DNA from: Granulosicoccus sp. | GTDB taxonomy: Bacteria; Pseudomonadota; Gammaproteobacteria; Granulosicoccales; Granulosicoccaceae | Direction: 5' to 3' | Assembly (NCBI GenBank): GCA_013002205.1 | Contig: JABDKN010000128.1 | Span: 2,824-66,823, forward strand | Length of the DNA stretch: 64,000 nt | Shown here: piece by piece, positions 14,343 through 21,765 of the stretch | How positions within the stretch are numbered: the first letter of the stretch is position 1 | Layout of the letters: every line of letters starts with the position of its first letter | Translations under genes and position numbers: made by a program | The notes under the pieces: generated by a model | What the model was told of the DNA's origin: nothing | Database searches by the model: none | Seen by the model: the letters and a program-made list of their open reading frames with translations, nothing else

Positions 14343-16625
14343 CTACTGTGGAACCGTGGCTTCCTTGTTCTCCTTGCTTTCGAACTCGAAAGCCAGGTCG
14401 CCTTTCTCGTCGAGGATCACGTTGACCCGACCGCCACGACTGAGCTTACCGAAGAGAATCTCGTCGGCCAGGTGTTTCTTGACGTTTTCACTGATTAATC
14501 GTGACATGGGACGTGCACCCATACGGGCATCGAATCCATGTTCAGCCAGCCAGGCCTTCGCTTCGTCATTGAAATCGATCGACACATTTTTCTCCTCAAG
14601 CTGCGCCTCGAGTTCGATGATGAACTTATCCACGACATTCAGGATGATGCTCTTGTCCAGCGGCTTGAACTGGATGATGGCGTCCAGTCGATTGCGGAAC
14701 TCCGGCGTGAACATCTTGTTGACCGCATCGGTGCCGTCAGTACTGTGATCCTGCTGGGTGAATCCCATCGTCGTGCGCGAAATTGATTCGGCACCGGCGT
14801 TGGTGGTCATGATCAGAATGATGTTCCTGAAATCCGCCTTACGACCGTTATTGTCGGTGAGCGTGCCGTGATCCATGACCTGCAACAGCAGGTTGAATAC
14901 GTCCGGATGCGCCTTTTCAATCTCATCCAGCAGAACCACCGCGTGCGGATTCTGTATGACCGCATCAGTCAGCAAGCCACCCTGATCGAAACCGACATAC
15001 CCGGGGGGTGCTCCAATAAGGCGGGATACGGTATGCCGCTCCATATACTCGGACATGTCGAAACGTATCAACTCGATACCCATGATATTGGCCAGCTGCT
15101 TGGTCACTTCCGTCTTGCCCACCCCGGTCGGGCCAGCAAACATGAAGCTGCCGATTGGCTTGTCTTCGGGTCCGAGTCCGGAGCGTGACATCTTGATCGC
15201 TGCACCCAATGTGTCGATGGCCTCGTCCTGCCCAAACACCAGCATACGAAGATCACGGGCCAGCGTCTTGAGTTTGTCGGTATCGGTCGATGACACACTC
15301 TTTTCAGGAATACGGGCAATCTTGGCCACGATGGCTTCGATATCCTTCACTGTGATCTGTTTCTTACCTTTGGTCGTCGCCCCTTTCACACGGTGATTGG
15401 CACCGGCCTCGTCGATCACATCGATGGCCTTGTCGGGCAGGAATCGATCATTGATATAACGCCCTGAGAGTTCTGCTGCAGTCTTCAGCGCATTATTCGA
15501 GTACTTGACTTCATGGAATTCTTCGTAACGTGACTTGAGACCTTTCAGAATCTCGAAGGTCTGATCGACCGAAGGTTCCACCACATCTATCTTCTGGAAG
15601 CGGCGAGACAGGGCACGGTCCTTCTCGAAAATACCTCGATATTCCTGATAGGTCGTAGAGCCTATGCACTTTAGCTCACCCGTCGCCAGCATCGGCTTGA
15701 TCAGGTTGGAGGCATCCATGACACCGCCCGATGCAGCGCCGGCACCGATGATGGTATGAATCTCATCGATGAACAGTATGGCACTTGGCTCCTTCTTCAG
15801 CTGATTCAGAATACCCTTGAGTCGTTTCTCGAAATCCCCGCGATACTTCGTACCGGCAACCAGTGCACCGAGATCCAGTGAATAGATGACCGCATCGGCG
15901 AGTACTTCGGGGACCTCTCCATCGACGATTCGCTTGGCCAGCCCTTCAGCGATCGCTGTTTTGCCGACGCCTGCCTCGCCCACGAGCAGCGGGTTATTCT
16001 TGCGCCGGCGACAGAGTACCTGCGATGCGCGCTCGACTTCATGGTCGCGACCGATCAGCGGGTCGATCTCTCCGGCAAGTGCCCGCGCATTGAGGTTACT
16101 TGCATACTTGTCCAGCGGCTTGGCATCCGTTTCGCCCTCCTCACCCGAATACTCGGTCGCGGCATCATCTGCCTCCTCCGGCTCTTCCTGTGAATTCTTG
16201 GCAATACCGTGTGAAATATAGTTGACGACATCCAGGCGAGTGATGTTCTGCTTGTTGAGCAGGAACACGGTCTGGGAGTCCTGTTCGCCAAAGATGGCGA
16301 CCAGTACATTGGCACCAGTGACCTCTTTCTTGCCGGAGCTCTGTACGTGAAAAACGGCACGCTGGAGTACCCGCTGGAAGCCTAGTGTAGGCTGGGTCTC
16401 GCGAGTATCGTTCTCATCGAGCAGCGGCGTGTTCTCATCGACGAAACTGTCCAGTTCATCACGAAGGGTCTCGAGGTCACCGCCACAGGCACGCAATACC
16501 TGGGCGGCTGTCGGATTATCGATCAGGGCAAGCAGAAGATGCTCAACCGTCATGAATTCGAAGCGGCGCGTGCGTGCCTCCTTGAACGCATTGTTAAGGG
16601 TGAATTCGAGCTCTTTACTTAGCAT
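14343..16625 (-). CDS. clpA: ATP-dependent Clp protease ATP-binding subunit ClpA
   Basis: [11 protein letters not shown], two AAA modules ([16 protein letters not shown]), APPGYVG. Confidence 0.98.
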
Positions 16626-16700: not shown

Positions 16701-17018
16701 TTACACCTTTTCCATCTCACACAACAATGGGTGCTTACGTTCCCTGGCCAGTTGCGTAACCTGAGCAACCTTGGTTTCGGCAATCTCCCTGGTAAACACC
16801 CCGCACACACCCTTGCCCTTCTGGTGGACATGCAGCATGACCCGCGTGGCCTGCTCCCTGTCCAGTTTGAAAAATACCTGCAACACCTCGACGACGAATT
16901 CCATCGGCGTGTAATCGTCGTTCAACAACACCACTTTCCACAGTGGTGGCTTGGCAAGCTTCGGCCGTGCTTTCTCGACTGCCAGACCGCCCGCCCTGTT
17001 TGTGTCTTCTTCACTCAT
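16701..17018 (-). CDS. clpS: Clp protease adaptor ClpS
   Basis: [28 protein letters not shown]. Confidence 0.98.
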
Positions 17019-17148
17019 TTACTGTTTCCACGAGATCGATTGATCTGACTCCAGATCAGCTGCCACAGTTCCGGAATACCTCTTATATCAGGGACTGACT
17101 CTGCGATCACGCTTGGCGGTTGGATCGCAATTTTCATACCCCTTCAAC

Positions 17149-17173
17149 ATGGTGCCTGAAATACCGAACTCAA
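17149..17173 (-). promoter_or_regulatory. Possible sigma-32-type promoter for clpS-clpA
   Basis: Minus strand TTGAG-N14-CACCAT versus consensus TTGAA-N13-14-CCCCAT (two mismatches). Confidence 0.3.
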
Positions 17174-17764
17174 TTGCTGGCGTGTTCACGTTTACCACGC
17201 ACACAACTTACTCTGCCAGCCAACAAAAGTGTAGTCCTGCAAGCCGTGCAATAGGGTGACAGATGACACGCTTTTGCTGCCATGGCCAATAACGCATGGC
17301 CAGTGTCACCCGGGTGGCGCCAATGGCAGATGAGCTCGAGCTCCAGGGCCGATGGCGGTACACTCCGAGTCAGCATTTTCAGCGTTTCCGGCGCCTTTTC
17401 CACTCATTTGCCTGGTGAGGGAAAACAGCTGGACAGCCGGCAGAGAGGCCCATGGCTGACCAAACAGCCGGGGCGTACCAGAATGATCCGAGGCCGGGCG
17501 CCGACGCCCCGAAATCCGCCGCACAGCGACTGACCCCCTCGACCGCCACCGTCGCTGCCACTGCCACTGCCACCGTTACTGGCACATAGGGCCCGGGTTT
17601 ACCACCATACGGACACCGGGCCATCGGTCAGTCTCGGACAGATCGGTTGTCCATAGTTAGTAAGTTACTGCAAATTGTACTTATAAACTCATGATATATC
17701 TATCGAGCCCCGAAAGAATGCAATGGTGATCAAACAATCATTCCAGTGACTCCGCGCGTCCGGG

Positions 17765-19177
17765 CTAGCGAGAGCCTCTACCGAACAGCACCACTTCAGC
17801 GGCCTGGAAAAGGATCAGCAGGTCCAGGAAAATCGTGTGATTCTTGACGTAGAAGAGGTCGAATTCCTGGGTCTGTACCGAATCATTGAATGAGGCATCG
17901 TAGGGGTAGCAAACCTGCGCCCACCCGGTCATTCCAGGCTTGACGGCATGCCTTTCCCTGTAATAGGGAATGGCCTCGCCGAGTCTCTCGACAAATTGTG
18001 GACTTTCAGGTCGCGGACCCACGAGACTCATCGTGCCAGTCAGCACATTCAGAATCTGCGGGAGTGTGTCGATTCGTGTCTTGCGGATGAACTTCCCCAC
18101 TCTGGAACGTCCATGGTCCATTTCCGTTCGCCACCGGGCCTGGCCACCACTCGTCGAATCGACCGGCATGCTGCGAAATCTCAGTACCTCGAACGGCTTT
18201 CCCAGAAACCCTACCCGGACCTGCCGGCAAAGCAGCGGTGCATCCGGACCATCTTCAAGCCAGATCGCCAGTGCAGTGAGCAGCAGGACCGGCCAGCCAC
18301 AGGCCAGGATGAGGCCGCTGGCGAGTAGATCGAAAGCTCGTTTACCAATATCCCTGAACGTGCCGCGTCCGAACCTGTCTGAATAGATGAGCCACTCGGG
18401 GCGCAAGAGCTCCAGCGGAAGCTTGCCTTGCTCGCGCTCGAAAAAACTGAGCAGGTCGATAACATCCAGGCCATGAAGTTTACATTCCAGCAACTCGTCC
18501 AGTGGCAGGCCACCACGCCGCTCATCCGCTGCCACGACGATCTCATCGACATCACTGGCCACGGCAAGTTCCAGCAATGAGCGTCCGGCCGTGTTTACCA
18601 CTGATTTCCGGTCGACCGCAACCACGGGATCGGTGGACAGCGCTGCATAGCTGACGATGTGAAATCCGCGTCGATCGACATGTCGTCGCAAGCGTCGGGC
18701 TATGGACGCCGCCTTCTCACCAGCGCCCAGCACGAGCACCCGGACTTTCAGGATGTCCCTGTCCAGATAGTGGAAGTACATCGGGCGAATCGTACCGATC
18801 AACAGAAACGCGATGAGTACGGCCAGGCCAAACACCCCGCGCTGCAGTTGTAAAGTTGGAAAAAAATAATAGAGCACGGCGAGAATGACCACACCGCAGG
18901 CAAAACCGATCACGGAGCGCAGGAAGACGCCCAGTACACCGCCCCGAATACGGCTCTGGTACAAGCCCATCACCATGATCGTCACCGGCACGACGAGACC
19001 AAACAGCATCGCTGTGGCAACGGATGACTGAATGCCTGCGTCCTGGGCCAGGTACGATCCATCGACGCTTACGTACGCCGCCACGAACACGGCCGCAACA
19101 CAAATGCAGAACTCCAGCAGAGCCAGCAGCAGGAACGGCATCTGAAGATGCATCTTGAAGTATCGGAACGTACCCAA
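17765..19177 (-). CDS. TIGR03013-like (XrtA/PEP-CTERM-associated) sugar/phosphoglycosyl transferase with degenerate active site
   Basis: N-terminal 4 TM, CoA-binding-like middle domain, C-terminal Bac_transf domain ([32 protein letters not shown]); likely TTG start at 19177. Confidence 0.85.
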
Positions 19178-19444
19178 ATCCGGTTGCAACCCGTTCGTTT
19201 GGAGCAAGCTGCGGCCATTGTAAGGCAGGTGTCCCGATCTGGTGGCCGGAAAACCCACGATTTTCCAGCCAGACCAGGCAATGGTAACCGCCGGTTTTTG
19301 ATTCAGTTCTCAGCCAGGAGAACAATGTCCGGTCAGGCTCGCCACCGGACCCAGAGGCCGCCTGCAAACACGTATAATCTGCCGGACTGTGTGCCATGCC
19401 TCACTGTTCGCAGCCAGTCAACCAGGATTTCACCGGTTAATTCC

Positions 19445-20725
19445 ATGTTTACGATCAGTGACAACGACACGATTGCCGTCATCGGCCTGGGCTACGTAGG
19501 TCTTCCGCTGGCCGTGGAATTCGGCAGGAAAATGACCACCATCGGGTTTGACATCGATGATGAGCGTATCAGGGAGTTGAAATCAGGCCATGATCGGACA
19601 CTGGAGGTGTCATCCACGGAAATGAGGGCAGCAGCCAGCTTGCAGTTCACCAGTCGTCTGGACGATCTGGCCGGCTGCAAGGTATTCATCGTCACTGTCC
19701 CCACCCCTATCAATCGTCACAAGCAGCCTGATTTGTCACCATTGACTGGAGCCAGCGTAGCGATTGGCAGCATCATGCAGGCAGGTTCAGTGGTCATCTA
19801 CGAATCCACCGTGTATCCCGGCGCCACTGAAGAGGTCTGCGTTCCCATTCTGGAAAAGGAGTCAGGTCTGAGGTTCAACCTCGATTTCTTTGCCGGATAC
19901 AGTCCGGAACGAATCAATCCCGGCGACAAGGAACACCGGGTCAGTACGATCATGAAAGTCACCTCCGGGTCCACGCCGGCGGTGGCCGACGCAATCGACC
20001 TGCTCTATCGACGAATCGTTACGGCTGGAACCCACAAGGCAAGCTCCATAAAGGTCGCCGAGGCGGCAAAAGTCATCGAAAACACACAGCGTGACCTGAA
20101 CATTGCGCTGATCAACGAACTTGCCCTGATATTCGATCGCCTGGAAATCGACACGCTGGAAGTACTCGAGGCCGCCGGCACGAAATGGAACTTTCTCAAT
20201 TTCCGGCCCGGGCTCGTGGGTGGACACTGCATCAGTGTTGATCCCTACTATCTGACGCACAAGGCACAGGAAATCGGCTATTACCCCCAGGTCATTCTCT
20301 CCGGTCGCCAGATCAATGACGGGATGGGAGCCTACGTCGCGGCCCGAGTGGTCAAAATGCTGACGCGTCGGCGCATCCATGTCGTGGGGGCCAATATCCT
20401 CATCCTCGGTTTGGCCTTCAAGGAAAACTGCCCCGATCTGCGCAATACACGTGTGGTGGATATCGTTCAGGAACTCATGCACTACCACGCCAATGTCGAT
20501 GTCTACGACCCCTGGGTCGATCCTGACGAAGCGGAGCACGAGTACGGTATCACCCCGATAGATGCTCCAGTGGACGGGCACTACGACGCCATCATTCTTG
20601 CTGTTGCTCATGAACAGTTCGTGCACCTGGGCAGCGAGCGTATACGTCGGCTTGGTAAAGCACAGAACATTCTCTACGATATTAAAAGCGTTCTACCCAA
20701 ACAATCGGTCGACGCTCGACTCTAG
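19445..20725 (+). CDS. tviB: UDP-N-acetylhexosamine C-6 dehydrogenase (TviB/WbpO family)
   Basis: [52 protein letters not shown]. Confidence 0.9.
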
Positions 20726-20757: not shown

Positions 20758-21765
20758 ATGAAAATACTCATTACCGGTACCGCCGGATTCATCGGCTCAA
20801 CGCTGGCTTTGAAACTGCTGGAGCGTGGTGACGAAGTAATCGGCGTGGACAACGTCAACGACTATTACGATGTGAATCTCAAACTGGCCAGGCTGGAGCG
20901 CCTTAAGGCGCGCGACGGTTTCACTGACGTGCGGGGCAGTATCGAGGATCGGGCACTGATGGAGGAGACGTTTCGCAACTATCAGCCACAGAGAGTCGTG
21001 AATCTCGCAGCCCAGGCAGGTGTCCGCTACTCACTGGAAAACCCGCACGCCTATATCGACGCGAACATCGTCGGGTTCACCAACATTCTCGAAAATTGCC
21101 GCCATTCCGGTGTGGAGCACCTGGTCTATGCATCGACCAGCTCGGTCTATGGCAACCACACCAACATGCCGTTTTCGGTACACGAATCCGTAGATCATCC
21201 CGTCAGCCTCTACGCTGCCACCAAGAAGGCCAATGAGCTGATGGCGCACACCTATAGCCACCTTTTTCAACTTCCGACAACCGGACTGCGCTTTTTCACG
21301 GTGTATGGACCCTGGGGAAGGCCGGACATGGCCTTGTTCCTGTTCACCCGGAACATTCTGGCGGGTCTGCCGATTGATGTCTTCAACTACGGCAGGCACA
21401 AACGTGACTTCACGTTCGTGGACGATATCGTGGAAGGCGTCGTGCGTACGCTGGACAAGGTGGCGACGGCTGACGAATCCTGGGACAGCAACAAACCCGA
21501 CCCGGCCACCAGCTCTGCACCATTCCGCATATACAACATCGGTAACAACCAGCCGATCGAACTGGAACACTATATCAGCACATTGGAGAGCTGCCTGAAC
21601 CGTACGGCAATCAAGAACCTGCTGCCACTTCAACCCGGCGATGTGCCGGACACCTACGCTGATGTGAGCGACCTGGTCAGGGATGTGAACTACAAGCCTG
21701 ACACCAGTGTGGAAGAAGGCATCGGTCGTTTCGTCGACTGGTACCGGGATTACTACAAGGTCTAG
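20758..21765 (+). CDS. NAD-dependent UDP-uronate 4-epimerase (CapI/Uge-like)
   Basis: [48 protein letters not shown]. Confidence 0.92.

Follow-up and report, generated by a model that had tools for sequence, protein, structure and literature searches.

Introduction

Monotopic phosphoglycosyl transferases (PGTs) use an Asp-Glu pair as their catalytic dyad (PMC10186338, PMC10942596), and the large members of the group are laid out as a four-helix transmembrane bundle, a middle domain of unknown function and a C-terminal catalytic domain (PMC10942596). In PglC, Arg88 binds undecaprenyl phosphate (PMC10519829). Blocks at late steps are known to select suppressors in the initiating enzyme, as described for the initiating transferases wecA, wbaP and cpsE in connection with sequestration of undecaprenyl phosphate (Und-P) (PMC12826051).

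Here we analyse a PGT gene in a 64,000-nucleotide stretch of Granulosicoccus DNA (the window). The source genome, referred to as G000, is a single draft metagenome-assembled genome (MAG) of 4.46 Mb in 316 contigs with a completeness of 98.7%. The gene represents a degenerate form within a known family. Like WbaP (PDB 8T53) and E. coli WcaJ, the encoded protein has a three-part architecture with a re-entrant helix in the C-terminal catalytic domain, but where WbaP reads KFRSM, DPRIT, LDELPQ and KGDMS, the protein studied here reads RFRSM, DHGRS, IDTLPQ and TGTMS. The TIGR03013 (EpsB-type) orthologues of Granulosicoccus are 63-73% identical to it and share the same head-to-head synteny; in contrast to these, the G000 protein lacks the dyad Glu together with nine other family invariants, and its cognate cassette is deleted. 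The first-pass annotation had described a probable pseudoenzyme on the basis of motif changes. The main addition to that reading is that the PGT's own pathway has been deleted. The case resembles the wecA, wbaP and cpsE suppressors in that the initiating transferase would likewise have been inactivated by missense changes, not by deletion, with the downstream steps missing. While those suppressors are laboratory events, the present case is natural and old enough for about 60 extra replacements.

Results

Gene structure and domain architecture

The gene and its parts map to the following positions of the window:

17765-19177, minus strand: large PGT gene of the TIGR03013 type, 470 aa from a TTG start, defined by the open reading frame and profile matches
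18749-19153, minus strand: N-terminal four-helix transmembrane bundle, residues 1-135
18359-18748, minus strand: middle domain, residues 136-265, in the position of the WbaP domain of unknown function (annotated 'CoA-binding')
17768-18358, minus strand: catalytic (Bac_transf) domain, residues 266-462, in which ten family invariants are replaced
18065-18070, minus strand: codons of the catalytic dyad, GAC for Asp362 (18068-18070) and ACA for Thr363 (18065-18067)

The first-pass annotation had placed the protein at 17765-18400, an interval that spans the catalytic domain only, while the whole gene extends over 17765-19177 of the minus strand. The longest form of the open reading frame covers 17765-19258 on the minus strand. 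The start is assigned to the TTG at 19177-19175, which is common to the orthologues (conserved in five genomes); a degraded start codon was ruled out, the same TTG being used in the orthologues. The database form of the protein, P0001, comprises 462 aa and begins at the internal ATG at 19153 (17765-19153), and all residue numbers given here follow P0001.

The protein matches the NCBIfam profile TIGR03013 "XrtA/PEP-CTERM system glycosyltransferase" with 487.1 bits (cut-off 393.35) over profile positions 6-443 of 443, and Pfam PF02397 Bac_transf with 177.9 bits over profile positions 1-178 of 179. Residues 91-459 align to S. enterica WbaP (PDB 8T53) with E = 7e-28, and PglC chains align as well. 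The full-length TIGR03013 match, the Bac_transf match and the WbaP alignment identify the product as a large monotopic PGT of three parts. Within Granulosicoccus, the gene is the orthologue of the large PGT by which PEP-CTERM-type exopolysaccharide (EPS) is primed. The re-entrant helix with its helix-breaking proline is present, with the Trp-Pro retained in the segment ...ACGWPVLLL....

Substitutions in the catalytic domain

Across the dyad the minus strand reads ATC GAC ACA CTC CCG CAG (I-D-T-L-P-Q), with the Thr codon at 18065-18067, as the first-pass annotation had reported; an Asp-Thr pair stands at 18065-18070 in place of the Asp-Glu dyad. Relatives encode Glu363 by GAG or GAA, and its replacement by Thr requires two base changes. 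The other motif changes listed in that annotation are equally present, namely KFRSM to RFRSM (K325R), D(P)R(I/V)T to HGRS, where D-S-R-V-T now reads D-H-G-R-S (R348G, T350S), FYRQ to LCRQ (Y309C) and YGAS to YDAS (G419D). Its description of a full-length protein that keeps the fold motifs also agrees with our analysis, as GPRPE and KPG(M)TGWAQV are retained, the latter with I408M.

We compared the protein with two sets of sequences, an orthologue set of its 119 closest homologues (63-73% identical, mostly Granulosicoccus) and a diverse set of 150 representatives of 50%-identity clusters (36-61% identical). Glu363 is found in 119 of 119 closest homologues and in all 148 diverse representatives that have no gap at this position (267/267 together). 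Likewise, Lys325 and Arg348 each occur in all 119 closest homologues and in 149 of 149 diverse representatives. Four active-site residues besides the dyad Glu are replaced, the Lys of KFR(S/T)M (K325R), the Arg of D-x-R-x-T (R348G), the Arg following GPRPE (R384S) and Lys428 (K428T), and each of Lys325, Arg348, Arg384 and Lys428 is 98-100% conserved in the 150 diverse representatives. Asp362, Arg357, GPRP, KPGxTGWAQ and the Trp-Pro of the re-entrant helix are retained, as is the arginine equivalent to PglC Arg88.

At columns that are at least 95% conserved throughout the family the PGT deviates at 10 of 54, compared with a median of 0 and a maximum of 5 in the other sequences. The ten replacements (K325R, A333S, E334T, A342R, R348G, T350S, E363T, R384S, K428T and T451A) all lie within the catalytic domain, where they affect 10 of its 50 columns with at least 95% conservation. 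At near-invariant columns of the orthologue set 27 of 228 are altered, while typical orthologues show at most 3. Thirteen residues of the PGT are never seen elsewhere in the family, and 12 of these fall in the catalytic domain; the transmembrane bundle evolves rapidly, with 15 of 81 genus-conserved columns changed, but a residue never seen elsewhere occurs at only 1 of 129 positions. Judged from these alignments, the motif deviations far exceed chance. P0056, the only other sequence that deviates at many positions, proved to be truncated at a contig end. A compensated frameshift behind the scrambled stretch at residues 330-350 was rejected, since alternative frames of the relatives do not yield the PGT peptide.

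Distribution of the Asp-Thr allele

That Asp-Thr might be a fixed feature of the orthologues, a point which the first-pass annotation proposed to check, is not borne out: the pair occurs in one genome only, with Glu in 119/119 and 148/148 relatives. The orthologues share no dead site that would define a conserved family of pseudo-PGTs, the Asp-Thr form being a singleton. A search of 15 billion proteins yielded no conspecific sequence, and the exact 23-mer around the Asp-Thr codon has no match in metagenome contigs or genome contigs. A search of metagenome contigs with the degenerate pattern IDTLPQ(I/L)(L/I)NV returned one match, which lies in an unrelated gene (chance). Among the genomes sampled, the predicted dead active site is lineage-specific and confined to a single one. 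A single-base sequencing error is excluded as the whole explanation of the changes, because the replacement of Glu by Thr takes two base changes and the approximately 60 excess replacements are spread across the gene.

Accelerated evolution on the terminal branch

G000 is sister to G016 (SH-aLRT 96), inside the clade that carries the cassette described below. In the maximum-likelihood tree of the PGT the terminal branch of G000 has a length of 0.44 compared to 0.068 for G016, whereas in the tree of concatenated flanking genes the corresponding values are 0.14 and 0.086. Three-point distances assign about 97 amino-acid changes in the PGT to the G000 branch versus 28 to the G016 branch, while the four flanking genes together give 123 changes (G000) versus 92 (G016), i.e. 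an approximately 1.3-fold ratio. Protein change in the PGT is thus about 2.6-fold above the genome background, and from the branch counts for the PGT and its flanks there are about 60 excess replacements on the G000 branch. Compared with 13 genomes, the identity of the PGT lies 10-15 points under the regression on flanking genes, corresponding to 5-6 SD (residual SD of 0.021 from other pairs). The acceleration is specific to the PGT gene and to the G000 lineage.

A signature of hypermutation or damage was ruled out by the broad mutation spectrum with 54% transitions. Recent recombination was also ruled out as the reason for the well-kept middle domain described below: synonymous differences are equally high throughout the gene, and this even divergence leaves no recent recombination patch.

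Evidence for continued selection

As synonymous divergence has reached saturation even with respect to the nearest relative (dS of 1.4-2.5 or undefined), relative-rate and substitution-quality tests were used instead. Pairwise dN/dS is about 0.11 for the PGT compared to 0.01-0.08 for its neighbours, values that are to be read with the saturation of dS (1.4-2.5) in mind. The reading frame has no stop codon and no insertion or deletion relative to 18 orthologues. In bacterial mutation spectra, indels amount to about 3-10% of substitutions. In simulations of neutral mutation that produce 55-67 amino-acid changes, 5-10% of runs remain free of stops, before indels are counted. The approximately 60 excess replacements correspond to about 85-140 neutral substitutions, for which the probability that no stop arises is about 2-10%. 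With indels assumed at 3-10% of substitutions, several would be expected under neutrality, and the chance of finding none is at most about 7%; the claim that neutral drift would not have left the gene so intact assumes this ratio and takes all excess changes as neutral.

The quality of the replacements points in the same direction. The 94 polarised replacements in the PGT have a mean BLOSUM62 score of +0.14, compared with -0.05 in orthologues and -0.47 for random missense changes (p = 0.0002 versus neutral), and the same conservatism is seen in the 27 changes at invariant columns (p = 0.03). Conserved columns are altered at 2 of 63 positions in the middle domain versus 38 of 210 elsewhere (Fisher p = 0.002, for a domain contrast chosen post hoc), the latter comprising 15 of 81 in the membrane bundle and 23 of 129 in the catalytic domain. 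Outside the middle domain the alteration rate is about 15-20%, alike for genus-conserved, genus-invariant and family-invariant columns, and since this rate is uniform irrespective of conservation, the constraint tied to catalysis seems to be gone altogether and not merely weakened. The absence of stops and indels, the conservative replacements and the spared core of the middle domain support the view that the PGT is not drifting freely and that purifying selection on the whole protein probably continues.

The adjacent polysaccharide cassette is deleted

The neighbourhood of the PGT gene comprises the following features:

14343-16625: clpA, which follows clpS, on the far side of the deleted cassette
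16701-17018, minus strand: clpS, on the far side of the deleted cassette
17019-17764: spacer of 746 bp between the PGT stop and clpS, where relatives carry the 13-14 kb cassette
19445-20725, plus strand: TviB-type UDP-N-acetylglucosamine C-6 dehydrogenase (NF011729, 615 bits, cut-off 592), divergent from the PGT
20758-21765, plus strand: NAD-dependent sugar-nucleotide epimerase of the SDR family, 90% identical to that of G016

In the four nearest relatives (G016, G011, G022 and G004) the interval between the PGT and clpS is occupied by a cassette of 13-14 kb. It contains a DnaJ-domain gene, a TIGR03027 export protein, a TIGR03007 chain-length determinant, a TIGR03018 tyrosine autokinase, a probable outer-membrane protein, GT4 and GT2 glycosyltransferases, a flippase-like protein and deacetylase-like proteins. 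Orthologues of twelve cassette proteins were found nowhere in the G000 assembly (98.7% complete), and the PGT does not co-occur with the TIGR03027/TIGR03007/TIGR03018 cassette in this genome. As G000 nests inside the cassette-bearing clade, the cassette was lost on the same terminal branch on which the PGT is accelerated. Given the deletion of the cassette, the primary event is therefore a loss of the original function and not the gain of a new one.

Within the spacer, similarity to G016 is confined to 17026-17237, the 212 bp adjoining clpS, which correspond to the region upstream of clpS in that genome; the remaining approximately 530 bp are unique. Neither blastn nor tblastx detected cassette remnants in the 746-bp spacer. 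No counterpart of 17238-17764, the approximately 530 bp that follow the PGT, was found in G016 or elsewhere in G000; this stretch includes an AT-rich part at about 17640-17740 and, at about 17545-17580, GCCACT-like hexamers in a short run. It may be a deletion scar.

On the other side of the PGT the tviB-like dehydrogenase gene (19445-20725) is intact and evolves at a normal rate. The enzyme is of the TviB type and not a UDP-glucose dehydrogenase, so the locus would make an N-acetylated hexuronate; the divergent tviB-like and epimerase genes would supply a UDP-GalNAcA/GlcNAcA pool. The head-to-head arrangement with UDP-uronate genes, to which the first-pass annotation drew attention, does exist, but it is ancestral and genus-wide and not special to the Asp-Thr copy, and the product is N-acetylated. 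The synteny of PGT, tviB-like gene, epimerase gene, lysR and mnmA is conserved across the genus.

Four further members of the genus, G018 (L030), G020 (L032), G015 (L036) and G023 (L040), also have the PGT directly beside clpS with no cassette in between. Their PGTs retain the Asp-Glu dyad and evolve at a normal rate, and the only chain-length determinant of each of these genomes is a distant one (25-29% identical) at another locus, which may be served by the PGT. As all four keep a canonical PGT, loss of the neighbouring cassette alone does not force decay. In G008, which also belongs to the genus (C46:47090-48611), the cassette chain-length determinant is split in two by an in-frame TGA, which may represent an independent decay of the same pathway.

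A second polysaccharide locus

A further polysaccharide locus of G000, which appears to be complete, lies on contig C301 (14600-23400; L001 covers part of it). This locus encodes a Wzc-like kinase (755 aa), a canonical small PGT (291 aa, WcaJ-like catalytic domain), a WecB/TagA-family transferase, a flippase-like protein, two GT2 proteins and an epimerase. The small PGT reads KFRTM, DPRITRVG and LDELPQ, i.e. the canonical motifs.

Discussion

The explanation that we favour, with about as much to be said for it as against it, is that the PGT is catalytically dead, was orphaned by the deletion of the cassette and is still kept as a folded membrane protein. The 13-14 kb cassette beside the PGT was deleted on the terminal branch of G000; the initiating PGT would have lost catalysis once the downstream pathway was gone, and it would thereafter have been maintained as an intact, foldable membrane protein; we infer the causal order of cassette deletion and PGT inactivation. 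Transfer of sugar phosphate to undecaprenyl phosphate would thus no longer take place. By analogy, selection would favour inactivation of the PGT after loss of the downstream pathway, because an initiating PGT that has lost its pathway ties up the carrier lipid in dead-end intermediates. The protein would then be a pseudoenzyme, young and specific to this lineage, and not a pseudogene in free drift. The notion of a preserved but catalytically altered protein, put forward in the first-pass annotation, stands as far as the full length, the fold motifs, the loss of the dyad Glu and the signs of selection are concerned, but not as a state shared by the orthologues.

Several observations weigh against a dead but retained protein. 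The allele is known from one genome without a near sister, four genus members that lack an adjacent cassette keep a canonical PGT, and the uniform alteration rate of 15-20% is what plain neutral decay predicts, the middle domain excepted. The same uniform rate, together with the absence of the cassette from the G000 genome and the singleton nature of the Asp-Thr allele, would also suit a relic, i.e. a PGT that became useless after cassette loss and decays neutrally, having so far been spared a stop or a frameshift. The C301 locus adds to this, as its own canonical small PGT makes the large PGT dispensable for priming. Such a relic would, however, be expected only rarely to lack stops (about 2-10%) and indels (at most about 7%, with none seen), and neither replacements more conservative than random missense (p = 0.0002) nor a spared middle-domain core (p = 0.002) fit neutral decay. 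We regard the relic as possible, if not the outcome to be expected, and keep it in play because our estimates under neutrality depend on the indel rates assumed, on a domain split made post hoc and on one genome only. It is unlikely, in our view, that the PGT is still active after recruitment to another pathway, with an adaptive burst of changes that retuned the enzyme and with Thr and the other replacements tolerated or compensated. The nucleophile Asp362, Arg357, GPRP, KPGxTGWAQ, the re-entrant helix and the reading frame are all maintained; the hydroxyl group of Thr could in principle ligate Mg2+; and conservation of the adjacent TviB-type dehydrogenase and epimerase indicates that their product still finds a use somewhere. 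Against this, Glu is found in 267 of 267 sampled family members, ten invariant residues (at least 95% conserved), including the Lys of KFRSM and the Arg of D-x-R-x-T, were lost together, and the cognate pathway is absent. An assembly or consensus error is very improbable, even though the allele comes from a single MAG of 316 contigs and is found nowhere else. The changes are scattered over all 1.4 kb, their substitution spectrum is broad and indels are absent, the flanking genes on the same 118-kb contig are normal, strain mixing cannot produce residues that occur in no relative, and the adjacency of PGT and clpS recurs in four other genomes.

Within the reading of a dead but retained protein, a more specific version may be considered, which we put forward tentatively and with more doubt than conviction. 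It regards the PGT as a pseudoenzyme caught at birth, which lost both pathway and catalysis on one terminal branch and whose intact middle domain, face for binding undecaprenyl phosphate and membrane bundle would serve a non-catalytic job. This job may be to bind the carrier lipid or a partner protein and thereby tune the use of the UDP-GalNAcA/GlcNAcA pool. Such binding is conceivable because Asp362, the equivalent of PglC Arg88, GPRP and the Trp-Pro of the re-entrant helix are retained. The sensor or scaffold role suggested in the first-pass annotation is purely conjectural.

If the PGT is dead but retained, it offers a natural, recently formed pseudoenzyme of the monotopic PGT type with very close active comparators, which would help to tell residues required for catalysis from those on which folding, membrane insertion and partner binding depend, and it provides a natural counterpart of the laboratory rule that late-step loss selects against the initiating enzyme. 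If it was indeed caught at birth, the protein and its 119 active orthologues form a dated natural series for the origin of regulators derived from dead PGTs. If it is merely decaying, it represents ordinary gene loss after an operon deletion, and automatic annotation would still label it an active glycosyltransferase. The value is modest either way, because the evidence comes from one metagenome-assembled genome.

Additional features of the genome and locus

The profile of exosortase XrtA (TIGR03109) finds nothing in G000, and of 31 genus genomes only 4 exceed the family cut-off. Loss of the exosortase was ruled out as an explanation of the PGT change, since most members of the genus lack XrtA in any case. 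The TIGR03027/TIGR03007/TIGR03018/TIGR03013 'XrtA/PEP-CTERM system' cassette is present in most genus genomes. Judged by these profile matches, the polysaccharide machinery of the genus appears to be largely uncoupled from its namesake sorting enzyme.

Searches for RNA families, promoters and terminators in 16900-19500 gave nothing above chance. A TACAAT motif upstream of the PGT is conserved. The sequence CCTGCCTTACAATGG at 19215-19229 (minus strand), upstream of the PGT start, is common to G016 and in part to G004, within an intergenic region that is otherwise poorly conserved, and could represent a -10 element preserved intact in G000.
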